Shown here piece after piece: positions 2,871-64,000 of a DNA stretch of 64,000 nucleotides (its first letter is position 1; each line of letters begins with the position of its first letter). The stretch comes from Cyanidioschyzon merolae (taxonomy: Eukaryota). Made by a program: the position numbers and the translations under genes. The notes beneath the pieces were generated by a model. It made no database searches. It saw only the letters and a program-made list of their open reading frames with translations, and was not told the DNA's origin. The stretch is from NCBI GenBank assembly GCA_000091205.1, contig AP006501.2; one strand, written 5' to 3'.

Positions 2871-5739
2871 GTGTGTGTAGGCGTGCATCACACAGCGACT
2901 TGGAGAACTGTCTGGATTTGGTACGCGAGTCTAGCCGCAGTGACACCAATACTAGGTGATAATCTAAATAGGTTGTACCTGACGGTGCATCTAGAACGCC
3001 ATTTACAGCTTCCGAGACGTCCGTACTAGATGAATTTCCGGTATGGTTATAGATGAAGGCACATTTTGTAAGCACTTTTTTCCGCCAAGATATCCGGAAC
3101 AGGCTGCGCTCCTGTAAAGTTCCAGTTGTCGATATATTGGCGTTTTCAGCGAACCGCCTCGCGAGACCTGCGCGATTTCCTTTGAAGACTTGTGTTGAAG
3201 TGTATCGCTATGGCACGGTACCGCTCTGAACTCCGGACCGTCCTCCGGATTGCTCACGAGCGTGTCAGTTCAGGTTCATTCGCAAGTCATTGCGAGCTTC
3301 TGCGCTCCTCGAGCGACCTCTACTGAAACAGGTCTGTTTCCATTCCGTGCAACCGCCAGTGCCGATGACGAATCGCCTCTGGCTGTGGGTGCGGATCTCT
3401 TGAGCGATGCTCTACTCATTGGTCAGAGCCCGGTGTTCAAGGACTCGCAGCATTTGACCCGGATCCAACGCACCAGAAAGCGGAGGTAGAGCTAGGTTTT
3501 TTACCAGTCTCTATGTAGACGCAGCTTATAGTTTGCATTAGGCGCTTTGCTGACAGCCAGTTCCCGTTGCGCGCCAAGTGGTGCTGGATCCGATGCCATC
3601 TCGACGAGACTCGCGTAGCCTATGCAGCTGAGTCGATGAACTATGAATTGCCCGACGCTGAGCTGCTAAATACTATAAATAGATGTCTTTGCTCCTTGAC
3701 GCTAGCATCTTGCATTTCATGGTCAATACGAGCACGAAATCGATTGCTGCCCCTGAGAGTCATACGGACCCACGTGCAGCATCTGGTACATATGAAATCC
3801 TCTGGAAAAAGCCTTTTCCTGGGATATCTGGGGAGCATGGACATCCTTCCCAGCTGCTCAGCGGGGAATGGTAGGCACGTGCATTGCACCAGCACTTTCG
3901 CACTCAATGCCGCGACAAATTCGGGATACGAAAAGTGGCACGCGCCCGACGCATACATCACGAAAGGCTCTTGAGTGTAGCCCTCGTTCCATATCAGATT
4001 CAGATGGATCACTGAGGTGCTCGCGCTGTTCCCCAATGTCGACTCTTTTCAGAACTTTTTGGTGATGTACAGCCTACATTTTCGAAATGGATCAATAGGG
4101 GCTCACGAATTCATACGTATTTCTGGAATGCTCGGTCGCCGTTTTGGAGTGACTCTTTCGACGCGTTGCTGCTGGTATTAGTTGCTTCGCCATCATCAGG
4201 GCGATTCACGATGCTTTCGAACTAGGGTAAGAAACGTAATCGATATTATGATCCAGTTCACACCTGGGAGCTTCCACGCTTCCGCGTTGCATTCGTGCTG
4301 TATACCCAAATGACGTACTCTTCACGTTTGCGATCATTCTGTTTCAAGCGAACTTGTGGGCGCACAAATTGCAATACTGGATATTCGAGCAAGCAGAATA
4401 CTCGACGTCGTCCTTTGACGATTCCCTCACGTGCTCGTTTCAGAACAACACGGAGCGTCTTATTTCAAACAATCGTTTCGGGTGCAAACCCAAATTCTTC
4501 TCTGCTTGGGGCCATCGACGAAACCGCATTCCACAGCACAACGATACCTCTGCAAGTACATGCCCTCAATGGCTCACATCGTTTCCCTTTGAATGGGACA
4601 AGGTCTTGGACTTTTACTTCAGTCATCGCAGGGATCGTTTCCAGCGGAGTATGCGTAAACGCCGTACGCGAACGGCGCACAGACTGATCGAAGTCTCTCG
4701 AGTTCTTCTTTAGACTGGATTTCGCCTGCAGTACTTGTTTCATCATGGACCAGCACCCTCTCATGGAGCAGCACGCGCTTGCACGTCCAGAGTACAGGGT
4801 ACTCGCGAACAAGTCGGCCAGAGCAAGCTCGTGATTGCAGGTTACAGCATCCAGCGGGAAAACGGAGGTGCATCGGAGAGACACGTTTTGTATCCGTCGA
4901 CGGATTGTGCCGAGCGATGGAGAAAGCGTTCATCGGTCATGGAGCGCCCCACGAAGGTTGAGATACGATGGAAATATGGGAACACATGAGCGCTACAAAG
5001 AGCACACCGAAGCTGTATGCAAGGGACATGAAAATGGCAGGCGAACCCCGTAAGTCGTTATGGCAACCCTGGCATGAAATGCTTACAAAACAGCCGGGAG
5101 CGTCGGAATAAAAAACTTTAACGCTGCGATGAACATCACTTGACTGCTAATACTAGTAAAGAGAGGGAACTGAGTCACCAATGTATTTAGAGCCGAAAAT
5201 AAAAGAGAGTGAACGGCACTAATCACAGAAATCGTCCACAAATGCTTGTGTTGATATTCCACAAAAGAAGAAATTCAAACTTCGAATGTACACCCAAGTT
5301 ATATAAATAGACACGCTCCATTGTATCCCGATATGGCCGTATCCTCGGGTTGTGCACAGCATAGAGCGCGCCACAAAATTTCATCCCGCATGGAACACTG
5401 TCCAGCGACTGTGCCTGCTACCTGCTCACCCGGGGCATCGGAGCTGTATACCATCGGACGCCCCATGAGATGAAGCGTCTGCAGCGCCAGTCGACGGATG
5501 CGTGCCACCACGAGCATGGATGCACAAAAGTTCAATACGATCTATTTATGTACATTTTGGATCGAAATGGTTCTGCGCGGAGATACACGCACTGGCGCTT
5601 CTATCTCGGCAGCTACGGCCACGCGTCCGTGCCATCGCGAGCGCGCGGCTCTCGGCAGGCTGGACGTGAAATAGCTCAAATTTACGCCTTATCGAGTAGT
5701 TGTCCTTGCGTAGTCTCTGCTCCACAACCTATCTGACGC

Positions 5740-51002: not shown

Positions 51003-53347
51003 TTACCCGTCACCGCGCATTTTTCTCATATTGATTGCGGAGTTAAAGTCTCGGTTCACGAAATCCATTCGTTTCTTGCCATCACTGGATGTACTTACTA
51101 CGGCAAGTTGTCCGAGAACTTTCGCCCTCCTTTCCATTTGCTCTTCTGTCAGCGCTCCGTACTTTGCTATTTCCTCAGGGCTCCTCTGGCACTTTTCCAT
51201 CTTCACTCTCTGAAGTGTACAACCCAGCTCATGGTGAGTATAGGACGTTCGAAACTCCTCTACCCGTATCATAACGAAACGACGTGCGCACTCCTTGTAC
51301 ACCCTCGTCGTTGGAGCTAGCGTAGTTCCTTTTTGGGTCTTCCAGCGCCCTGCTCGATACGCTACTACGAGCCTCTGACTGTCATCCTCCATCAAGGCAC
51401 TCAGCTGATTGAAAAAATTCGCGACCGCCCGCTGCTTCCCACAATACAAATTCATTCGCAAACGAGCCCACCGGGGCTTGGTATACTCTTTCCACAGCGT
51501 ATCCCAGTGCGCCATGCGAACTTCCATGACTTTCCGAAAAGCTTCAAAGTCCGCTCCTCGGCAAGTCACCTAGCTCCAAGCTTCCAGGTGATCTTTCATT
51601 CCTGAAATCCATGTCTCGATTTTCTTCCTCGCATTCATGATTCCCGAGTCTTGATAGTATCTCCCTCTCGAGAACCTCAAAAGACGCATGTCTTTCTGAC
51701 GTAAGTTACCATCAGTACCATCTTCCGCACGCTTCAATGCTGCGATGGTAATGATATTCGTATTCCCAGGGTCCGCGCCAACGACAAAGTCGTTATCTAG
51801 CACTCTCTGGGTCGCAGGGCCCACCTTCTTGTCTTCTTCATGCTTCACCGCGTCAACGACAAGGTCTTTATCCTGCATTTCCTGCGTCGTAGAATCCGCC
51901 TTCTTCGCATCTTCATCCTTCGCCGCGTCAACGATAAAGTCGTTATCCTCCACCGCCTGCGTCGCAGGACCCGCCTCTTGGTTTTCTTCATGCTCCTCTG
52001 CGTCAACGGCAAGCTCGTTATCCTCCACCTCCTGCGTCGCAGGACCAGCCTCCAGCTCATCTTCATCGTTCGTCACGCCAACGACAAGGTCGTTATAATG
52101 CACCTCATGCATCGCAGGATCCGCCTCCTACTTTTCTTCAGCCCTCGTTCCGGGCGCAGCCGATGGAGGGACTGGACGATCTTTCTTCAACCGTCGATAG
52201 TGTACGCACACGGTTACTCCATCGGTTTCGATCATCCCAGTGAGCTACTTTTGCTTGCTCGTTTTGAGACGTTTGAAACCGAAGATATTCTTCCAGTACG
52301 TCTCCCGGTTTTCGCCGGTGAAGTGCTCCCTACTAATATTGAACTCCGCACTGATCTCCTTTATGATGCCGTAAAGGACCGCGGAGTCGATCGTCATAAA
52401 ATGAGCCTTGATGTTGCACAACGGAACGACATTGAAGCACTCACCCAATAGGAAAGCCTTCCGTCTCTCCCATTCTTCATTTTTCCTCACTCAGCTTCAT
52501 CTCCGCTTTGCGTTCGAGCTCTCGGCCCAGAAACACAAAATACCGCCGGAAGATGCGATAGTATCTTTCCTTATCTTTTTTCAACTCTGATATCTTGTCT
52601 GTTGGATTCACCAGCCCCAAGACTGCACGATGCTCTTGTATAGCCGCACGGGTTACAGATACTTCATTCGTGCTCCTTTTTTGACGTCTTCTTGTCGACG
52701 AATTCGACGTAATCTTCATGCTGGCGATCTTTCGTGATGCCACTGATGATCGACCATATCCCCTTGCGAGAGATGCCCGGGTTGAGTGCAAACGCGGTGC
52801 GTATCATGAAACATGCGAGGTTCTCTGTCAAATGGTTCTTCAGGTTCGTGATGTACTTCATTGCCCCATATGTGTAAATATGCGAGTCACCCCTGCGCCG
52901 AGCACCCTCGAAGCGGAATACCGCGAAGTTTTCGTGGAGAGTATGCATTAGCACATTTTCCCTCCACGTTCCCGCTGTACCATGCATCAGGTATCGAAAA
53001 GACGTCTTGTCGAAGAACTCGCCCGGAATCTCGACCGTTTCCATCTGCGTCATTTGTTCGTACATCTCCCTCGCCAAATGCATCAGTCCGGAAGACGCCT
53101 TGGCAATACTCTTGGAGTACGAGTCGACATGCTTTCTGATAGCGTCTCGCAACTTTTCCGTATAGGGATGCTTGATATGTCCAAGAAGAGAGGTTTTCAC
53201 CACTATCTCGTGGTACAGTTGTCGTTCTTGCAGCCTTCGACGTAGGGCCTCCCATTTTGCTTCTTTTTCTTTTGCTCTTCGTCGGGACTCGGCACTGTAT
53301 TTGTTTTTCTGGCAGCCGGCGACAATGGCGCTTCAGGATCGTGGACT
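51003..53347 (-). pseudogene. degraded Fanzor/TnpB-like RuvC nuclease gene (eukaryotic OMEGA/TnpB homolog), interrupted by stops and frameshifts and containing an acidic tandem-repeat block
   Basis: Consecutive minus-strand ORFs at 52664..53203, 52477..52791, 52245..52490, 51570..52112 and 51003..51569 are collinear. A RuvC-I-like segment [16 protein letters not shown] lies at ~52200. A TSxxC pre-zinc-finger motif FVMIRVEEFRTSYTHHELGC lies at ~51230. The RuvC-III motif KKRMDFVNRDFNSAINMRKM lies at ~51030 (cf. TnpB/Fanzor RDxNAAxNI). ORFs 51570..52112 and 51003..51569 are in the same frame, separated by a single TGA. No ATG precedes the N-terminal frame. Confidence 0.55.
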
Positions 53348-54370
53348 TGCTTTTTCATAGCTCTCCTTTTTTAGGTATTTTCGAAAAAGAACGCTCTTTG
53401 AACCCTTCTGTTATATACTGCGAAAAAGTACTTGACTAGACTTGTTTGAGGGCTGAAACAAAAATGAACTGAAAGACTTTACTTGGCTAAGAGCTCAACG
53501 GAAATCCAACTTTTTCTGGCAGAACAACACGCTCGTTACTAGGATCGCGTTTCCCTTCAACGGCGGCATGCGCGTCGTGTCAGTTCACTGCCTGATCTCC
53601 GAGGCGTGCTCCCTGAGCGCGATGCGTGCACCGCGCGAGACGCTGCACCGATCCATGAAGGACACGTGTCCGACACCGCCTTGGCATATGCGTATTCGCA
53701 CCGCACTGCAGCTGGAATAAAGTATCGTAGATTGGAAACTCACGTAGAATGATCTCTTGCCATAGGCTCTGGCGGCGGTGCCAACGCTACTGCCCATCGC
53801 AGTACCGACCTGACGTACAAGGGGATTTTGGGGCCTGGCGAGATACCCCTCGACGCTTCTATAAAAAGCGTTGCGTTCTCTGCGGCTTACGCTTGTGTGG
53901 ATAAGGAAAACATTATTCTACTCAATGGGATTTTCGTTAGTTTTATTGATCGTAAACAAACAAGGCACGATAGGATTCCTGAACACGGATACACGTTTAA
54001 TCCCGGTGCTTGTTATGCATGCGGCACGGACGCTGGAATAACGAACTGACCTGAGTTGTGCTTCTATCCTGCGTCACGTTCTGGAACTGATGGCAGATCA
54101 AGTCATTTCCATGCTATCGTCGTTGTCCAAGTTATGGCGCCCGCTACTCTCCCGGATCCTGTGATCTTGGGAGAGGCATAGCATACATAGAGCGTTCATA
54201 CGTGGCACAGCACTTGACCAACGCATCTCACCTGGAACGATCGAGGAACCCGCCAAAAAAAGCATACTGAATTCTGATCTACTCTTTAAGATTAGTTTCA
54301 GGAGACTAACCCATACATCGAGCCCGGAAGAGACACAGCCGACAAAAAATGCTTTTGAAAAGAAAAACGC

Positions 54371-54827: not shown

Positions 54828-55903
54828 ATGCAAGCTCTTTTCGTTTTTGTCCCGTTGTACCAGGAAAGACACATTGTTCGCGCGCGCGCTGCAACTCGAG
54901 CACGGTTCCCGCTACGTACCGCACGTGACGGGTGCTTCGCAGACGGACAATGCCACCACTGTCAGCATCCGCTTCCCTTGTTAGTGCAGCCCTCGCCTGT
55001 AGCACGCCGGCACCACGCTCTGCATCTTCGTATGGGCCCGAAACAGTCGCAGGTCGCCGTGATCACTGGCGCGTCCTCTAGAGTCGGTCTGTATTCCGCT
55101 CGCGCTCTGATCAGCAAGGGCAACTGGCACATCGTCATGGCATGTCGTGACGTCGACCGGGCGGAACGCGCAGCAAACAGCGTGAACCTTCCAAAGGACG
55201 CCTATACAGTGCTGCATTGTGATCTGGCTGATTTCGCCTCTGTGTTGAAGTTTGCGAGAGAGCTATCGAGTGTGGCGCGCGTGGATCACCTGGATGCCCT
55301 GATCTGCAATGCCGCACTCTGGCATCCGCGGGACAAGAAACCGCTTCTCACGGTGGACGGCATCGAGAAGGCCATACAGGTTTGCTATCTGAGCCATTTG
55401 CTTATATGTCGGAGGCTATTGCCGAAGCTGAAAGTATCGCGCGGGCGCATTGTGTTTCTGACGACTCAGACCCATTCGCCGAATTCGTTGCCGGGAAAGA
55501 TTCCCCCGCAGGCTCGTCTCGGTGACTTGTCTAGTCTAGCCGCGGGGCTTGGTCCGCGGACGACGGGCATGGTGGACAGTGGCCCGTTTGAGCCCACAAA
55601 AGCCTACAAAGACGCCAAAGCCGCGAACGTTTTATCAATGAAGGCGCTCAGTGATCGATACGGCCGCGACGGGGTGACCTCTGTGGCGATTTTCCGGGAT
55701 GTGTCGCCGACAGCAACCTCTTCCGCGAAAAGCGTGGCTGGTTCCGATACGTATTCTTCCCGATTCTTCAGAAGTATATCACTCCGCAATACGTTCCGAA
55801 TGACGAGGCCGGCCGCCGTGTAGCCGAAGTGGCGACCCAGGGACAGTTCCCGGACTCGGGCTCGTATTATCAGTGGCGTGGCAAATATACGTATGGGGGA
55901 TAG
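54828..55903 (+). CDS. POR: light-dependent protochlorophyllide oxidoreductase (LPOR, SDR family) homolog with an apparent 1-nt frameshift near 55695
   Basis: The LPOR alignment runs full length. VAVITGASSRVGLYSARALISKGNWHIVMACRD matches ViTGASSGLGLaTAKALAetGkWHViMACRD. The LPOR-specific insertion loop (…PPQARLGDLSSLAAGL…KAYKDAKAANVL) is present. In frame 0 the ORF reads …GVTSVAIF, then the homology continues in frame +2 as PGCVADSNLFREKRGWFRYVFFPILQKYITPQYVPNDEAGRRVAEV… (cf. [47 protein letters not shown]). It ends at TAG 55901–55903. One C missing from ttcc(c)ggg at ~55695 explains the shift. The ~68-aa N-terminal extension MQALFVFVPLYQERH… resembles a transit peptide. Confidence 0.75.
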
Positions 55904-56182
55904 AAGACCGAACCGCAGGTTATTGAACCAACGTAAGAAATCGACAAGGCAGATCAGCTTTACGAACTGAGTCTTGATCTGATCGACCAGGCGTTACGGA
56001 GGCGAGGCCTAAAGTCGAATTACTTGGCCCCTGTCTAAGGTTTGTTAGTGATGAAAATGAGATGCGGGCTTCGGAGCGCAGACCGCTGCGTCAAGGACGG
56101 ATGTGGGAGCAACAGCGTAACGATGAGACGACACCCCACTGTCACAATCGGATAGCGGACGGATGGGTGGGCACACCTCCTG

Positions 56183-57804
56183 ATGTGGAGAACCAAAATT
56201 GCTTCGCAAGTCAGAAAGCGTACTGCAGTAGTGATTAATATAGCTATAGCTATGACCTACTTCGCATCGAATGCGCCAGAGACTGCCAACTGTGGTCGTT
56301 CAAGAGGGCAGAGCGCGTTTATTTGGGTAATTTTGTGCGGTGAAGAATACGGCAATAGAAGCGCACTTGCAGACGTTTGAACGATCTGTGGGTATTCGAT
56401 ATCAAACTGGGTCAACGGGCGTGGATTAATGGAAGCTCGGTAGTGAATACTCTAGCAGTATATGGGGCATTGAGCGAGTCAGGCCCGAATAGTGTACCAA
56501 GTACTCGCTATGGATCAGCTTTCTGGGACACTAGTAGGACTGATCCGATCGTATTTGTTGGAAATGGATACATAAACACGAGCGGCAGTGACTTTCTCAA
56601 TGATGTCTTTGCATTAAAGAAAACATTCCCTACTCCAACACCAAAAACTTCGCGGACACCTACCCCCATCTGCTCCAATGAGCTCTGCGGATCTCCAGGA
56701 CAGTGCATCAACCAGGACGCTTGCGAGCAAGTCGGGTGCTGCTTTAACTCCCAGACGAACGCTTGCACCCTGAAGAGCGTCTCAGCGGCGTGCAGCGCTG
56801 TTGAAGTGACGCAGCGCGTCACCTGCGGCTGGAGCTACATCTACCCCGACGAGTGCACTGCGATACCGGGATGCTGCTGGCAGCCCACAGCGAACGGCAT
56901 CCTGGCACCCTGGTGCTACTACGACATCAACCATGCACCGCAGGCTTCCGTAGCGCTGCAGGAGATGCAGGCACCGGTTCCCGTCTGCGCATCACCGGGA
57001 GCGCAGCGCCAGCCATGCGGCGACGCGGGTATCAACCAGTTTACCTGCTATGCCCAGGGCTGCTGCTACGACTCGCAGGCGCAGAACCAGTGGGTGCAGA
57101 ACGGCAAGCAGCAGAGCGACTTTGCGTCGAACCCGTACTGCTTCCAGCCTGAGAAGACGTGCGCGGTGGGCGAGTTTGAGCGCCAGCCGTGAAATAACGT
57201 GGTGAATCAGAACCAGCAGCGGAGCAACAATAACATCAACAGTAGCCAGTTTGTGCGTCTGCTGAACACGGTCCTTTACGGAGAGCAGCACGGGACGCCG
57301 CGCACGAGCTACGCGTCGCAGCAGTGTCTGGAGGCTGGTTGCTGCCTGGGGATCGGCAACGAGTGCTTCCAGCCGGTTACCGAGTATGTTTGCCAGACCT
57401 ATGGGTATGCGTCGAACTCGCTGAGCGGCACGACCGGCAAAGTGTCGAACTCGACGTATATTCCATGCGGCTCCGAGTGCTGCAACGCCGAGACGCAGAA
57501 CTGCACGTAAAACCCGTTCAGTAACAACAATAACCAGCAACTGCAGCAACAGCAGGTGCTGTTGCCGTCATTCTGTGTGTGCAAGGACCCTACAGTTCAG
57601 TCCGGGACGTACCTGATCGCTTCGGATAACCTTGTGCACAAGGTGCGTTGCTGCCGCTCTGGCGAGGAGTGCATCAACAACAAGTGTATGATGATTAGTC
57701 CTACGCCGTCTCCGAGTGCCGTTATTGCGACTGCAACTGCGTCTGCAAGTGCGTTGGTATTGGTGTCGACCTCGACGCGTGCCTCAGCAAGTACTTCAGT
57801 ATGA
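56183..57804 (+). pseudogene. Kelch-like + triple trefoil (P-domain) cysteine-rich, S/T/P-rich membrane/secreted protein gene, disrupted by one 1-nt frameshift and two in-frame stops
   Basis: The ATG at 56183 is followed by a hydrophobic anchor AVVINIAIAMTYFASNA and a Kelch-type repeat (RGQSAFIWV…GNRSALADV). The frame shifts at ~56376, where gacgttt(t)gaac is missing one T, and continues NDLWVFDIKLGQRAWINGSS…VPSTRYGSAFWDTS. Three trefoil domains follow. The third is CASPGAQRQPCGDAGINQFTCYAQGCCYDSQ…NPYCFQP. It carries R-x-x-CG and GCC(Y/F)D and ends in CF, the WCF position of the consensus. The same frame continues through a TGA at 57190 and a TAA at 57508 into more Cys-rich sequence. It ends with a Ser/Thr/Ala tail. 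Confidence 0.45.
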
Positions 57805-58487
57805 ACCACTGCGTAGACGGCAGCTATCTGTACGGCCCCGCGCGCGCGAACACAGAACTAAAACATGTTTCAGTTATTGGTATATTGATTCCATGAGGAA
57901 CGTGGTTGTACAATATAGTTCGCACGTGCATGCACGCAACCTTCCAGTCCGGGTTGGGGGCCCACAATCCAATGTTGAGGGTATCTGGACACCAAACTTA
58001 GCCCTAGACTGGACATCGACAAATATGCAGATGGCCTGCAGAAAGAGGGAGTTTTTCGTACTGCGTCATAGCGGGCCGGGTCCGAATGTGCGACGGGCAC
58101 GCCATTAGCCTTTTTCGATATTTGGACTCTGCAAGGGTATTTGAAACACGACTGCGGCGTAGACTGCTACTTTGTATTGCCATTACGAGAGCGCCTTCAT
58201 GAAACTCGGTAGCAGACGCTGCAAAATATCTTTGTCCATTTATGATAGAAATGTCCTGTTGCGGGAGCGCCGTGCGCAGATCTGCGTCATTCAGACGGCG
58301 GTGCTTGACGCGCTCCCGTGCTGCTTACCTCAGAATACTTCGTGGAGGCTCGTAGTGGTACGGACGGAGACAGCAGTGACAACAGTACCAGCAGCTGGAG
58401 GCTCTCCTATCCCTGTAGATAGTAAGCAACTCGTTTCTCTGGGAGGCGTTTACTTTTGACTGGTGCAGAACCCCTTTCGTATCCTAT

Positions 58488-60677
58488 ATGCGAAAAAGGT
58501 ATTTTTCTATTGTGAGACTCCTGGTTATAGTATTGGTTGTGTCGGGAACACACACAGTTCGTGGAGTTTTGTCCGCAGAGAATACTGTATTATGGACCTG
58601 GATCGGTGGTAGTAGCTCTAACGGCAGTTCAGGTAGCTACGGTGTTCAGGGTGTGCCGAACACCAGCAACGTGCCTCCGGCGCGGTACGGTGCGGCCTTC
58701 TGGACCGGCGCTGACGGGGTGCTCTGGTTGTTTGGTGGTGGCAGCGACTTGAGAGACGTCTTCGGTGATCTCTGGAACTACAATCTAAGCACGTTCTCTT
58801 GGACCTGGGTTGGAGGCTCTGCATCCCTCAACTCTGGAGGGGTATACGGCTCCCTCGGAGTTCCCAACAAGAGCAACTATCCGCCTTCGAGGACGGAATC
58901 CGCTGCTTGGAGTGACAGCAACGGAAACCTTTGGTTATATGGAGGCTGGAATTTGAACTTGGGCTATAGTGATATGTGGATGTATAATGTATCGTCGGGC
59001 GAGTGGACATGGGAGCAGGGATCCAACAAGACCAATGTTTCCCCGACATATGGTCCTCTTGGGAACTCGTCTGCAAGCAACACGCCTGGCGCTCGTTTCC
59101 AACCCGCGACCTGGGTTGGCCTAGATGACCAGTTTTATCTCTTTGGTGGATTTAGTCCTAGTGGTACGTATTACGGTGACTTGTGGCAGTACAACACAGT
59201 GACCAACGAATGGAGCTGGATAGGTGGCACTCAACAGCTGTCTCCCTCTGGAAGCTATGGTGCGTTTCGCCAGGCATCGCCGAACAGTTATCCCGCTGGA
59301 CGTTTCGGAGCCACCTCGTGGCGAGACCTTGATGGGAACTTTTGGCTATATGGCGGTTTGGGAGAGATTGACGCAGTTGGCAGCTTTCTCAATGATTTAT
59401 GGCTGTACAATATCAGCTCCAAAGAATGGACTTGGATGTCTGGAGATGACAGTGTTGGCTCAAATGGGGCAGTATACGGCGAGAAAGGAGTGCCGTCATC
59501 GAGCAACACTCCGGGGTACAGATCCGGTTCCTCTGGATTTGTAGACTCGTCAAACACTCTGTATCTCTTCGGTGGTGTTTCACGCGGCGTCTGCAACGAC
59601 CTGTGGACGTTCAATATAACGAGTCTTGAATGGACTTGGGTAGACGGTGACGATACAACGAATGGAGCCTATAGCTACGGCGAGGTTAACAAGACAAGCA
59701 ATACAACGCTTCCACCTCCGCGATACGATGCAGTTCTTTGGAATACCGATCAAAACGACCCGGTCCTATTCGGAGGCCTCGGTAGCTCAGGTAGCTATAA
59801 CGACCTCTTCACATTATACATCGCAGCACCGACGCCTACACCGACCGCAACACCGACTCCGACGGCCTCACCGACGCCCTCCGTTACTGCAGCACGGTCG
59901 GCAACGACAAATGTGACGCAGACCGCTGTAGGCGAAGGCTCTGCGGTCTGCTTCCCCGCGGATGCCTCGGTGCTGATCGATGGTCTGGGCAACCATCTGC
60001 AGATAAGCGAGCTTCGATCAGGTATGGCCGTGATGGGCGTCAATGGGCGCGGGCAACTGGTCGAAGATAGTGTACTAGGATGGTTGCATAACGAGCCCGG
60101 CGCTACTGCAGAGATTCTGGCGATCAAGACGCTTTCCGGAAAGCAGCTGCGTCTGACGAGACAGCATCTGGTATATCGAGTGATCGAACACTTTAGAGAC
60201 TTTGATAGTATGATGACCACTTTCTCGTGTATTTCACAGAAGCAGCAGCAGCAGCATCAGAAGCACATACGTCGGAGCCTTGAGTTGGGTACCACCGCCG
60301 TTGAGGCAGTTTTCGCGGAAGATATCCGCGTTGGCGACGCTCTGCTGGACGTTGCTGCGCACCTGCCGGACCCCGTGGTGGCAATCGAGACAGTAGTTAC
60401 GCACAATGGTCTCTATGCGCCGTTGACTCGCTCAGGGCGCCTTGTGGTCGACGGCGTTCTCGTGAGCTGCTACGGGACGTACGCATCGCATGCCGTGGCC
60501 CATGCAGTGTTGTGGCCTGCGCGGGTCGATGCTCTGCGCAAGGTATGGACATCAGGGCTCGGCACAGAGGGTATTGTGGGTATCATGCCATACGCAGAAA
60601 GGCTCTATCACATTTGGACGAGTGCAGCACGTGTTTTAACGGAGGCTCGCGTAAGTGTTGTAGTTGCAGCCTGCTGA
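58488..60677 (+). CDS. Hog-type protein: signal/anchor + 6-blade Kelch beta-propeller + Thr/Pro linker + C-terminal Hint (Hedgehog/intein-like autoprocessing) domain
   Basis: The start is an ATG. The N-terminal hydrophobic segment is IVRLLVIVLVVSGT. Kelch repeats recur about every 50 aa with a W.W(I/V)GG…YG..G…P.RyG…W…g.L(W/Y)l(F/Y)GG…DLW.YN motif. A linker APTPTPTATPTPTASPTPS follows. The Hint domain starts at Cys (nt 59949). CFPADASVLIDGLGNHLQISELRSGMAVMGV…ILAIKTLSGKQLRLTRQHLVY matches Hedgehog CFPGSATV.leqGGtK.vkdL.pGDrVLAad…ie…t.ltltAaHLlF. NGLYAPLTRSGRLVVDGVLVSCYG matches GaYAPLTaqGtiLinrVLASCYA. Confidence 0.75.
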   Translation: MRKRYFSIVRLLVIVLVVSGTHTVRGVLSAENTVLWTWIGGSSSNGSSGSYGVQGVPNTSNVPPARYGAAFWTGADGVLWLFGGGSDLRDVFGDLWNYNLSTFSWTWVGGSASLNSGGVYGSLGVPNKSNYPPSRTESAAWSDSNGNLWLYGGWNLNLGYSDMWMYNVSSGEWTWEQGSNKTNVSPTYGPLGNSSASNTPGARFQPATWVGLDDQFYLFGGFSPSGTYYGDLWQYNTVTNEWSWIGGTQQLSPSGSYGAFRQASPNSYPAGRFGATSWRDLDGNFWLYGGLGEIDAVGSFLNDLWLYNISSKEWTWMSGDDSVGSNGAVYGEKGVPSSSNTPGYRSGSSGFVDSSNTLYLFGGVSRGVCNDLWTFNITSLEWTWVDGDDTTNGAYSYGEVNKTSNTTLPPPRYDAVLWNTDQNDPVLFGGLGSSGSYNDLFTLYIAAPTPTPTATPTPTASPTPSVTAARSATTNVTQTAVGEGSAVCFPADASVLIDGLGNHLQISELRSGMAVMGVNGRGQLVEDSVLGWLHNEPGATAEILAIKTLSGKQLRLTRQHLVYRVIEHFRDFDSMMTTFSCISQKQQQQHQKHIRRSLELGTTAVEAVFAEDIRVGDALLDVAAHLPDPVVAIETVVTHNGLYAPLTRSGRLVVDGVLVSCYGTYASHAVAHAVLWPARVDALRKVWTSGLGTEGIVGIMPYAERLYHIWTSAARVLTEARVSVVVAAC

Positions 60678-63600
60678 GCTGGCAATCTGCCCTGCAGGAC
60701 AGGGGCGAACAGTACCGATGGTACCACTCTAGGTGCTGCTTTTTCTGCCATAGGATAGTGTTTGAGCAATGATGGTAAAACGCGCTCTATCGCGAAAAAG
60801 CATCCCGCAGCATATTGCCAGGCATTTTTGATATGTGATGGTACCAGATCCACTTATATAAACGAGCGGAGTTGCAAAGAAGTATTCGTGTGTGTGAAAT
60901 CGAGGCACGCCGCGAAATACAGTTTTATGTACCAAGATGTACTGTAGCGCCAATACTTGCGGAGAGCAATAGCAGCAGCTGCCGGTTACATGAGACTGAG
61001 TGAGCAGAGGTTTGCATGCATCTATGCTTCGAAATAGTATTGTGGCTGGGGAGTTGTGGAGCGCTCCGCTCGAATATACATTCAGATATGAAAATTGGCT
61101 CTTAGCACTGGGGCGTGGTTCTTGGAACGGTGCAGTGAGAGCGATAAGGATTTCACAGTTGGGAAGATACGAGAAAAATCTATGAAAATTGTTTCAAGAA
61201 AGAAGAGCTGTATTGAATGCAATATGATCAAGATTCGCGACTGAATGTGGAGAAATAGAATTGGTTATAGTCGTACAATTCTACAGCTCCTGCAGTGGAA
61301 AGCATGAAAACGGAAAGTTATAAGGCCAAGGAGTAAATATCTCACGGTTATTCCGTTGATGCACTGCAGATGAGAAGGACTGCCAGGAAAAATATCGGCA
61401 GTGAAATGAACCTGGCTGTCAGTAGACTTCACTAGAAAGAACGTAACCACAGCCTGATCCCCATAGTTATAAGGCAGAGTGTACTGTGCCAGAGGCTCTG
61501 CACACTGCTCCAAACTTTGTGTAAGAAGATGTTTATATTTATGTTCTGGTGCCCTGGAGGGTGCACAGTATGTATATACTTCATAATTAATGTAAAGCAA
61601 GTTCCCGTGCTGATGAGCTCAGTCGTGCCAGTCCTGCTGATCGCACAAGGCAGCCTACTGGTAGCAACAAACCGGTGCTTATGGAACGATCGACCTGAAT
61701 GGGCCTGTCGCCACGACTCCGACCGACGAGGCGTACCGCAGAGCGAATCCTGCATACAGTGGAGCTAGTCAGAAAGTCCATGATGTAAGTCTAGATGAAG
61801 CTCAAGTGGGCGCGCGACATTCAACTGGTACCTTGGAGTTTGCTACAGTCTCGTCCTGACAAGCTCCGAGTCAGCCGCGGTACACGCGTTTGGAGTTGTT
61901 CGAGTTCTGGCTCTAGTGCGTTTATCGGCATAAACCGCTACATGTCCGGAGTGAGCTACAGGTGAAGCCAGTCTGTGCTTTGTGGATACGCAGCAGCCAG
62001 CATGTGCCAGGAGCTGCATCCGGTAAACTCTGGGTCATAAGGAATGAAGGCGAGACGCCAAGCAGCAAGCTTTGAACAATAAACAAGAGGCAAGGACGCT
62101 AAGGTCAGAGTTTGGGTGCTCGCGATCTTTGCCTCCAACCAAGCATCCCTGAAGCAGCCGCAAGCAGACTTGTATGGGCGAAAAGCTCATTGTCATATCG
62201 GGGCCAGCTGCTCTTTGATGCCGAGGCGGCGCGGTGGCTGATTCCGCCTTCCAGGAACGGTAGCGCGGAACAGTGCTATTGCTACTCTAGAGATGTGTAG
62301 GGGCAATAACTAGACAGATTAGTGAACAGTGGTTCGTGAATTCAGTGTACGCGTACAAGAAAGAGCATAGGGAACAGTGTTGTGCGTGAATCCAACAAAT
62401 CAGAATACAGACCAGAAAAAGAGGCCTCGATCATGGTCTGTTTCTAGTGCACATGTGGTTCCCTGCATTCTGCCCTGCGACAATGTGTTCATTCCTGTAA
62501 ACAATCTATATGGATGGTAAACAATGTTGGATCTCAGCTTGTATGAGAATATGCCTGGTACCGCAAGCACTACCGAGGCGATGCGCTGAGGTGCATTGCT
62601 AGACCCTAAAGATCGGCACGGGGGAAGAGTAATCAGCTGTACTGGATCTTCTCAACTTCACTGGAAACGGTATCCGAGTCGGAATGCAGAATACGGGTCG
62701 GCAGCAGAGAAACAGATATAACGTACGCTTAGCGCCTGTGGATGCTTATGGTAAGGACGCGAAGCTAGACGTACATTCAAATACTGAATGGACCCAACAA
62801 ATTATATCCATGTACCTTGTCTGAACAACCACGGCACGCGCATCGATACGAAGGGTCGCTTTCCCGTATAAGGCGATTCCTCCGGAAGCCTGCCCTGTCG
62901 ACGTGCGACGCGCAGCTGCTGTTCGCAGTGGCGCCAAGTCCGGTCTGCTGCGTGCTGCATAGCGACCGCGCAAAGTGATTACGAGCGCCTCCTACACAAT
63001 GATCGGTAAGCCGAAAAGGAGATTGGAGCTCCTAATAGAAGTAACGTGCCCACCGCTACTGTATTGCTGCCTGAGACCCAAGGGCCGGGTCGTCTTTTTT
63101 TTCCAACATTGCTCTCGGATCATCCATGAATCGGATCCACACGCAGGCAACAACAGGTCCCGGACCTACAAGCTGTCGACGAAGAAACCGCACCAGAGTC
63201 GCCTGGAAGCTAGCCACTAGCAAATTTGAGCTTAGTTACGGCTAGTGCTAGGAACGCTGACAGGGAAGAGATAGAGTTGCAACTGAGAAGATGTTCCAAA
63301 AAAGATATGTAGCTTTGTGCTTGCAGCTGAGTAGGGTGACTTACAGCAAGTTCATAACAATGAAAGAAATACGAACAATGATGACTACTGTGGATATTCG
63401 GAAAGCTCTGAAACGCGGTGGATATGAATGTATGGACGAAGGGCTTGCAAACAACGATCAAAATCGTGTGAAGAAACACGATGAGGATAGTAGAGTTCCT
63501 AAGCGGAGCAAACAACGCACACAGCCACTGTGCTGGTCTGAAGTCGCAGATAATTGAAAGCTCAACAATACCAAGCCATGTGCAAATGTAAGGCCATTCT

Positions 63601-64000
63601 TTAGGTACGAAGGGAACACAATTCGCCAAGAATATAAGCAGAAATATATCGAAAATAACATGAAAAGAGCACTTTCTTTGTTCGGTTAAGATATTTGTGT
63701 GACAATGGAGACAACCTAGCACCGAAAAAGCAGCATTTAAGTACTGTGAGATGTTGAGAGAAGAAAACGGGAACAAAATATGGTGAAGAACGACACAAAC
63801 GAGAGCAACGAAAGCTCGCGGGCGATTCAGACCACGAGCGACAGCCGGGGCCCAAAAAATAGGAAACTACGAGGCGGTCACGCTAAAATGCATCGATAAT
63901 ACTGCGCGTACTGGAGTATCCAGGTGGCAACACACAGAAATATGATGAAAAAGATTCCCTTCGGACCAATCGCTAGAGACATTAATACTGGAATGGGGGG

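Follow-up and report, generated by a model that had tools for sequence, protein, structure and literature searches.

The question raised by this locus is whether the trefoil-domain frame between a protochlorophyllide reductase (POR)-like gene and a hedgehog-like (Hog) gene is a working gene obscured by errors in the reference, or the remains of one. The sequence-only reading made earlier had described a cysteine-rich trefoil gene disabled by a frameshift and two in-frame stops. We analysed the whole stretch of 64,000 nucleotides, hereafter called the window, which, as deduced from the order of its genes and from the PH elements known in the literature, probably represents the right end of chromosome 19 of the Cyanidioschyzon merolae 10D nuclear genome. 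Three of its ORFs match 10D proteins exactly. Our conclusion is that positions 56377-57804 (+) are very probably a 5′-truncated pseudogene of a Kelch+trefoil (K+T) gene residing in a subtelomeric PH element. Both this family and its Kelch+Hint (K+H) counterpart are already described. The T, P and H genes as well as eight PH elements (6L, 7R, 8L, 8R, 11L, 14R, 18R and 19R) were reported from C. merolae subtelomeres (Nozaki 2007); subtelomeric duplications of K+T and K+H genes and the Thr/Pro linker were described later (Cho 2023), and 15 TFF-like and 17 Hog genes have been counted in this alga (Plant Cell 2026). The presence of trefoil domains, which the earlier reading regarded as notable, is thus not new, as genes for both trefoil factors and hedgehog have been on record from the subtelomeres of C. 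merolae since 2007. The features of the locus are compiled in Table 1.

Table 1. Features of the trefoil copy and its neighbours (positions in the window)
Feature	Position	Strand	Evidence
Protochlorophyllide-reductase-like short-chain dehydrogenase, "P" of PH, broken	54828..56038	+	Pfam adh_short
Upstream 65-codon ORF, unsupported as part of the gene	56183..56380	+	shuffled controls
Residual Kelch blade, the sixth and last of the propeller	56377..56625	+	tblastn vs Hog; blastn vs L004
Short Pro/Thr-rich linker (FPTPTPKTSRTPTP)	56626..56667	+	aligns with Thr/Pro linkers of Hog, P0192, P0038, P0046
Trefoil-like module 1, shortened, seven cysteines	56671..56766	+	PF00088 18.4 bits alone, profile positions 12-33
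Trefoil module 2, canonical six-cysteine P-domain	56791..56922	+	PF00088 43.8 bits, E 2.4e-11
Trefoil module 3, canonical cysteines, long third loop	56986..57144	+	PF00088 31 bits, E 2.3e-7, positions 1-43
In-frame TGA for conserved Cys codon (TGC)	57190..57192	+	alignment to relatives
Cysteine-rich C-terminal region	57193..57700	+	alignment to intact relatives; no Pfam match
In-frame TAA for conserved Tyr codon (TAC)	57508..57510	+	alignment to relatives
Tail rich in Ser/Thr/Ala, with the stop codon usual in the family (TGA 57802-57804)	57701..57804	+	aligns with P0002, P0192, P0038 tails
Intact Kelch+Hint (Hog) gene, 729 aa, "H" of PH	58488..60677	+	Pfam Kelch families; Hint PF01079 E 5e-33

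The frame beginning at 56377 is derived from coding sequence, as it comprises two stops in 476 codons where approximately 13 would be expected by chance. It runs to the TGA at 57802-57804, and the TGA and TAA at which the sequence-only reading had read through are its sole interruptions. In-frame ATG codons were found only at 56965, 57688 and 57691, and upstream of the trefoils the frame possesses neither a start codon nor a signal peptide. The description as a disabled, cysteine-rich trefoil gene proved correct.

The search with the Pfam Trefoil profile (PF00088), which had been proposed as a check, yielded 67.1 bits (E 1.3e-18) in three stretches of the segment 56377-57189 and exceeded the gathering threshold curated for this family (21 bits). 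Of the three modules claimed, modules 2 and 3 also surpassed this threshold individually; module 1 alone fell just below it (18.4 bits), and it is conserved across all relatives aligned. Modules 2 and 3 display six of six cysteines with the spacing C...R..CG...C...GCC(F/W/Y)...(W/Y)C(F/Y), and these cysteines are invariant across eight aligned sequences. When solved structures were searched by phmmer, only TFF2, TFF3, TFF1 and the trefoil of maltase-glucoamylase were matched, TFF2 being the best (E 8.4e-7), and module 2 matched both porcine TFF2 domains with all six cysteines aligned. The AlphaFold2 model is of low confidence (mean pLDDT 60.3, pTM 0.39); in a fold search with this low-confidence model, the plausible PDB matches (probability of at least 0.25) were all trefoil proteins or trefoil-bearing chains, with an E value of 8e-4 for 1pos and a TM-score of 0.68 (rmsd 2.3 A) for TFF1. 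The same six-cysteine P-domain occurs in vertebrate TFF1, TFF2 and TFF3 as well as in GH31 glucosidases and in ZP1. In this unicellular red alga, by contrast, the domain is combined with a propeller, a linker and an extra cysteine-rich region, and in the window copy module 1 is shortened and module 3 has a long loop. For the trefoil likeness, possible convergence rather than common descent has been suggested (Plant Cell 2026). A possible fourth module (QQCLEAGCCLGIGNECF) was rejected on account of its lacking a Pfam match.

Similarity of the window to intact K+T genes is detectable from 56376 on and, as to the propeller, comprises the last Kelch blade only. The intact gene on the metagenome contig L004 is 77% identical over 56376-56642 (blastn), and the blade matched residues 370-459 of Hog, i.e., its last blade plus linker, with 38% identity (tblastn, E 4e-16). 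No Pfam family, including Kelch_1 to Kelch_6, was found at E<=1 with the 88-aa segment 56377-56640 alone, and the Kelch homology of the blade is based on the pairwise matches to Hog and the K+T genes and not on a profile. Hence, from the one and a half Kelch repeats of the earlier reading one blade was confirmed. The half repeat further upstream, seen by eye (LCGEEYGN ~ FGGGGNAN, APETANCGR ~ APTNYPGGR), had to be rejected. It was tested by local DNA, local peptide and anchored semi-global alignments against shuffled controls, and 44 to 226 out of 500 shuffles reached the score observed for the 56183-56380 peptide versus Kelch blades, which is not above chance. The DNA of this segment was likewise non-significant in the window and marginal in two other copies; marginal upstream Kelch signals (2 to 6 out of 500 shuffles) were restricted to L001 and L006. 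Nor could an N-terminal anchor be supported, since the upstream ORF does not resemble the true signal peptide of intact K+T genes; its second codon is TAG in L001 and its hydrophobic stretch holds charged residues in L002. The suggested paralogy with the N-terminus of Hog was retained in so far as both genes share Kelch propeller and linker sequences and differ in their C-terminal domain, but the shared part is the last blade and linker of Hog.

Judged from the intact relatives, the layout of the parent gene is a signal peptide, a six-blade Kelch propeller, a Thr/Pro/Ala-rich linker, three trefoils, a cysteine-rich region and a Ser/Thr/Ala tail, and the family would encode secreted or surface proteins. 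The 901-aa protein BAM79243 is an intact paralogue in strain 10D, and on L004 an intact ORF of 908 aa runs from the signal peptide through six Kelch blades, the linker and the trefoils to the tail. Homologues exist in Cyanidiococcus (897 aa) and Cyanidium (869 aa), the K+T and trefoil-only genes of the Cyanidiales including BAM79243, BAM79920, CCYA04G1438 (Cyanidiococcus), CDCA06G1732 and CDCA10G3079 (Cyanidium); those of 10D are named "similar to trefoil factor". Over the shared part, protein identity amounts to 82-89% with the two 10D paralogues, 70% with Cyanidiococcus and 51-58% with Cyanidium. Alignments with P0192, P0038 and P0046 extended over 409-475 residues (51-82% identity) and revealed a collinear linker, three trefoils and cysteine-rich C-terminal region in the window copy, which also has the last Kelch blade, the Pro/Thr character of the linker and, probably, the subtelomeric setting in common with K+T genes. 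Its linker is much shorter than those of intact family members. In contrast to the intact genes, however, the window copy is devoid of a start codon, the signal peptide and approximately five blades of the propeller, its frame is interrupted by two nonsense codons, and a conserved cysteine is replaced by serine (DPTVQS instead of DPTKQC in six aligned relatives). It thus represents a fragment, and not an intact member, of the family. According to the scenario we propose, the copy would have lost the promoter-proximal part together with start codon, signal peptide and roughly five blades, and later would have been hit by nonsense substitutions at a Cys codon (now TGA) and at a Tyr codon (now TAA) and by the loss of the further cysteine.

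The codon at 57190 is TGC in L001, L004 and L006 and encodes Cys in P0192, P0161, P0038, P0046 and P0009, and the one at 57508 is TAC in the same three contigs and encodes Tyr in all intact relatives examined; on these alignments, each stop arose by a point substitution in a conserved codon. Sequencing or assembly errors in the 10D reference, which would leave the gene functional, might be invoked because the lesions are single-base changes in an otherwise very well preserved frame. Yet the identical TGA and TAA recur in the independent metagenome contigs L002 and L005 and, therefore, are not sequencing errors, so that the re-sequencing recommended for them is not needed. The T supposed to be missing from a homopolymer at 56376 is not demonstrable as an error either, as its position is the exact onset of similarity to intact Kelch+trefoil genes and the frame arrangement recurs in four out of four other PH-type copies and is thus common to all five. 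As, moreover, no start codon or signal peptide precedes the trefoils and the finished 10D genome is 100% complete (Nozaki 2007), we consider such errors extremely improbable. Hardly any probability remains for a full-length product obtained by decoding the TGA as selenocysteine or by readthrough of both stops. A TGA in place of Cys is the classic signature of selenocysteine, and the TGA does lie exactly at a conserved Cys position, but neither a SECIS element nor any other Rfam family was matched between 55500 and 61500 at E<=1, and selenocysteine would not explain the TAA. Readthrough is opposed by the missing start codon and signal peptide, by the loss of another conserved cysteine and by additional, unrelated stops and frameshifts in sister copies, namely a TAG and a 2-nt deletion in L005 and a TAA, a TGA and two 1-nt deletions in L006. 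Finally, the stops could lie within short in-phase introns, or an upstream exon could be joined, so that a spliced mRNA would encode an intact protein. GT...AG pairs spaced by multiples of three can indeed be drawn by eye around 57189-57245. However, sense codons run through both sites in the intact relatives and the flanks are conserved (NAVNQNQQ..., NPFSNNNN...), and we therefore regard both stretches as coding sequence and not as introns. The preceding gene has the same orientation and its end is only about 145 nt away from the ATG at 56183, and introns interrupt fewer than 30 genes of C. merolae. Splicing can practically be dismissed.

Exchange between the copies probably has to be taken into account as well, since the trefoil part shows signs of gene conversion. 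Over a tract of 547-552 nt, the window and L002/L005 do not differ at a single position, the background mismatch rate being 7%. In its trefoil part the window copy resembles the intact gene of L004 (94.5% identity) no less than the other truncated copies (94.7-94.9%), whereas for the Kelch blade the identity with L004 drops to 76%. Trefoil-region dN/dS values ranged from 0.13 to 0.32 between the compared copies, including pairs of truncated ones; taken alone, they suggest purifying selection, but we would attribute them to exchange with selected intact copies. This mosaic identity, the identical tract and the low dN/dS could also be taken as indications that the truncated copy is kept because it is useful, either as a donor of gene conversion to intact K+T genes or as a transcribed regulatory RNA. 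We judge this unlikely, as exchange is expected among subtelomeric repeats as a passive process, lesions pile up independently in the copies, and no sign of a transfer from the pseudogene to an expressed gene, or of a benefit, was seen here. That the trefoil relics of several PH elements form a sequence reservoir which is converted into expressed K+T genes is slightly more doubtful still. Such conversion, if real, would generate variety in a family of surface or extracellular proteins belonging to the diploid, cell-walled stage, a situation distantly resembling the pseudogene archives of antigenic-variation systems.

Under the preferred reading of a truncated pseudogene, copies of the PH element would exchange sequence by gene conversion or recombination, and this may be the reason why the trefoil part is well preserved although each sampled PH-type copy is without a usable start and most of them carry disabling lesions of their own. 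From the sequence we infer that the window copy is neither expressed nor functional. Homologue searches retrieved no protein from its frame but only paralogues on other chromosomes, and a public gene index contained no exact match to the 271-aa ORF; the same applied to the 729-aa Hog ORF. BAM79920 (373 aa, MFKHACSDF...) is a truncated copy of similar kind annotated as a 10D protein, and some truncated copies may therefore be transcribed. Counter to the pseudogene view, L001 keeps a frame of 455 codons without a stop; this called ORF (P0002) contains no Met codon, and ATG-TAG occupies the position at which the upstream ORF starts. L001, L002, L005 and L006 were rejected as strict orthologues of the window, as their identity of 87-92% corresponds to the divergence between paralogous 10D elements and contigs of 99% identity exist in the metagenome of L005 and L006, where they end at the repeat boundary.

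The trefoil relic is flanked by the broken POR-like gene and the intact Hog gene, all three probably within one repeated PH element, and the order POR-like gene followed by hedgehog-like gene agrees with the PH elements described before (Nozaki 2007). Paralogous copies are 87-92% identical. The P gene exhibits a frame change near 55690 as well as a TAG at 55901 and a TAA at 55934, stops in place of which L001 and L002 have GAG and TAC. Window Hog is 91% and 87% identical to two 10D proteins on other chromosomes named "similar to hedgehog protein". The K+H proteins share with the trefoil copy a homologous Kelch propeller, the Thr/Pro linker and the probably subtelomeric element, and the K+T protein of L004 shows 37% identity to window Hog over its complete propeller; they differ in having an autoprocessing Hint module instead of trefoils and a cysteine-rich region, and Hog, unlike the trefoil copy, is intact. 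The unique sequence breaks off near 53.4-54.5 kb, and contigs 99% identical to the window all terminate at 53.4-53.8 kb, the start of the repeated element. The telomere repeat (AATGGGGGG) is absent from the 64-kb window. The neighbouring genes are not conserved in Cyanidium and Cyanidiococcus, and no trefoil relic was found upstream of the Cyanidiococcus Hog gene.

The finding is an ordinary one and of small importance beyond annotation. The published PH element is named after P and H alone; between these two genes it contains a trefoil-gene relic that had not been listed, and in the window P is broken too. Together with L004 the locus provides a clear case of reciprocal decay after duplication of a K+T and Kelch+Hint pair: in the window Hog has survived and the trefoil gene has been lost; on L004 it is the trefoil gene that has survived, with a decayed remnant of Hint downstream. 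The role of trefoil and Hog proteins in an acidophilic red alga and their origin are questions already present in the literature, to whose testability a pseudogene does not add. Database matches to the Kelch propeller are dominated by secreted Kelch proteins of bacteria.

Three long ORFs of the window were identical to annotated proteins of strain 10D (BAM83029, BAM83031 and BAM83042). It is nuclear DNA of Cyanidioschyzon merolae, a thermoacidophilic unicellular red alga, which uses the standard genetic code and whose genome contains introns only very rarely. Among the genes at its chromosome ends, Nozaki et al. (2007) described T (trefoil factor), P (protochlorophyllide oxidoreductase), H (hedgehog protein) and E (ubiquitin-conjugating E2), and defined "PH elements" at eight ends including 19R. 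The order E2, POR-like, trefoil relic, Hog is consistent with such an element, and this order and the published list are among the bases on which the window can probably be assigned to chromosome 19R. Telomere repeats of the type AATGGGGGG were not found inside the 64-kb window.

Features of the window and their positions
Feature	Position	Strand	Remarks
E2 gene	about 50.3-50.9 kb		first in the gene order
POR-like gene	54828-56038	+	"P" of the PH element
Trefoil relic	56377-57804	+	
Trefoil module 1	56671-56766		shortened; PF00088 18.4 bits when tested separately
Trefoil module 2	56791-56922		PF00088 43.8 bits when tested separately
Trefoil module 3	56986-57144		PF00088 31 bits when tested separately
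Hog gene	58488-60677		Kelch and Hint (PF01079, E 5e-33, Pfam)

The frame beginning at 56377 is open up to the TGA at 57802-57804, with the exception of a TGA at 57190-57192 and a TAA at 57508-57510. Since the trinucleotide frequencies of the window itself predict about 13 stops for a frame this long, we concluded that the sequence is derived from a coding region. The sequence-only reading had proposed trefoil domains and a Pfam search for them. This search, carried out with 56377-57189, yielded PF00088 in three stretches (67.1 bits, E 1.3e-18), and modules 2 and 3 also exceeded the cut-off of 21 bits when tested separately. A fourth trefoil-like stretch downstream of module 3 gave no Pfam match. 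Among solved structures, sequence matches were confined to TFF3, TFF1, the N-terminal maltase-glucoamylase trefoil and porcine TFF2, the last with E 8.4e-7 and an alignment of all six cysteines. From eight sequences, an AlphaFold2 model of low confidence was obtained (pLDDT 60); its plausible PDB matches were all trefoil proteins. The trefoil identification is sound.

A protein search detected close relatives in Cyanidium caldarium and in metagenomes from hot springs. The metagenome contig L004 harbors an uninterrupted ORF of 908 aa, in which a signal peptide is followed by six Kelch blades, a Thr/Pro linker, three trefoils, a cysteine-rich region and a Ser/Thr/Ala tail. According to cluster look-ups, the annotation of strain 10D itself includes paralogues under the name "similar to trefoil factor". 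One of them, BAM79243, is an intact Kelch+trefoil protein of 901 aa, while BAM79920 (373 aa) is a trefoil-only protein that begins within the last Kelch blade (MFKHACSDFLNDVF...), lacks a signal peptide and shows losses of cysteines. Kelch+trefoil proteins also occur in Cyanidiococcus (897 aa), together with Kelch+Hint proteins, and in Cyanidium (869 aa).

The region 56377-56667 is related to residues 370-459 of the neighboring Hog protein (38% identity, E 4e-16). Homology of a Kelch segment to Hog, as originally suggested, was thus confirmed, but not its N-terminal placement, because these residues represent the last blade continuing collinearly into the Pro/Thr linker. An additional half Kelch repeat and an N-terminal anchor had been proposed for the ORF 56183-56380, which a T missing at 56376 would have separated from the trefoil frame. 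In three tests with shuffled controls, this ORF showed no similarity above chance in the window; the same tests gave marginal signals for the half repeat in two other copies. The frame arrangement at 56376 is shared by all four other PH-type copies examined. In one of them (contig L001) the putative upstream ORF starts with ATG-TAG, and in another (L002) its hydrophobic stretch contains Glu and Asp. Moreover, only residues 390-883 of the intact L004 gene are matched by the window, from 56376 onward. Judging from these comparisons, we read 56376 as the approximate start of detectable Kelch+trefoil sequence rather than as a homopolymer slip in a continuous gene.

Both in-frame stops noted in the sequence-only reading were verified. 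In all intact relatives examined, the TGA at 57190 corresponds to Cys (ERQPCTNAV; TGC to TGA) and the TAA at 57508 to Tyr (QNCTYNPF; TAC to TAA). As the identical stops recur in L002 and L005, two metagenome contigs that were assembled independently, they are real alleles and not reference errors. A further conserved cysteine is lost in the window (DPTVQS versus DPTKQC in all six aligned relatives). Neither a SECIS element nor any other Rfam family was found in the relic region. ATG codons of the relic frame exist only at 56965, 57688 and 57691, none of them upstream of the trefoils. The adjacent POR-like gene, a short-chain dehydrogenase gene, is broken as well: compared with L001, its T-run near 55689-55692 lacks one base, so that the reading frame changes, and the codons GAG and TAC of L001 and L002 are replaced further on by TAG (55901) and TAA (55934). 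All four premature stops of the two genes (GAG to TAG, TAC to TAA, TGC to TGA and TAC to TAA) are G:C to T:A transversions, which could reflect a mutational bias or else coincidence.

From 37,970 onward, three metagenome contigs (L009, L010 and L011) shared 98.8-99.3% identity with the window, and all stopped within the 400-bp interval 53372-53775. Contig ends are expected there, at the border of unique sequence and the multi-copy subtelomeric repeat. L001, L002, L005 and L006 revealed only 87-92.5% identity to the window at 54-60 kb, the same divergence as that of paralogous Hog proteins within 10D; the window Hog shares 91% and 87% identity with two 10D "similar to hedgehog protein" entries on other chromosomes. 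Because of this divergence and the unrelated left flank of L005, these contigs were not regarded as strict orthologues but treated as copies of the PH element. The trefoil copy carries two stops in the window and in L002, three stops and a 2-nt deletion in L005, and two different stops and two 1-nt deletions in L006. L001 has no stops and a called ORF of 455 codons (P0002) without any Met codon. L004 mirrors the window: 3' of its intact trefoil gene, a decayed Hint-domain remnant resides at 3947-4320 (36-41% identity to Hog residues 605-729, with in-frame stops and a frameshift), whereas in the window Hog is intact and the trefoil gene decayed. Thus, the decay of a duplicated Kelch+trefoil/Kelch+Hint pair appears to have been reciprocal between loci.

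The dN/dS values of the trefoil region ranged from 0.13 to 0.32 between compared copies. The trefoil part of the window was 94.5% identical to intact L004, compared to 94.7-94.9% for L001 and L006, and the Kelch blade only 76% to L004. At 57300-57851, a tract of 547-552 nt including the TAA stop showed no mismatch to L002 and L005 at a background mismatch rate of 7%, indicating a probable recent gene conversion or recombination among element copies. Ongoing exchange of this kind among subtelomeric copies, intact selected ones included, would account for the good preservation and, on sequence grounds, is probably the simplest reading of it and of the mosaic identity. From the mosaic pattern, relics could conceivably, though with low probability, even act as conversion donors for expressed Kelch+trefoil genes.

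The feature marked in the sequence-only reading is real and its domains were correctly recognized. Rather than a new kind of gene, the region represents a relic with a truncated 5' end and nonsense codons, derived from a subtelomeric family that is already published. In Cyanidiales, according to Cho et al. (2023), the most prevalent subtelomeric duplications are those of Kelch+Trefoil and Kelch+Hint genes, joined via a Thr/Pro/Ala linker; for Cyanidioschyzon they counted 11 copies of Kelch+Hint. In a 2026 Plant Cell paper, 15 TFF-like genes, expressed mainly in diploid cells, and 17 Hog genes, expressed mainly in haploid cells, were reported for C. merolae, and a convergent origin of trefoil domains was discussed as possible. 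Our additions are descriptive: a trefoil relic unlisted within the published PH element, the nature of the segment shared with Hog, the coincidence of the supposed frameshift with the onset of similarity to the intact family, and the mosaic exchange.

For both propellers (58566-59816 in the window, and the Kelch region of L004), the nearest non-cyanidialean relatives were secreted Kelch proteins of bacteria, among them proteins of Holophagales and Bacteroidota proteins carrying T9SS sorting domains, at 35-43% identity over the entire propeller (E below 1e-150). This similarity hints at a possible origin of the propeller by horizontal transfer.

Upstream of the POR-like gene, five 75-bp units (74% matches) form a tandem array at 51773-52147 inside overlapping ORFs of both strands, where identity to L002 was just 77-79%. 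Downstream of Hog (60700-64000), the GC content drops to 0.485-0.50 and the sole ORF of at least 180 aa is located at 63210-63776 on the minus strand.
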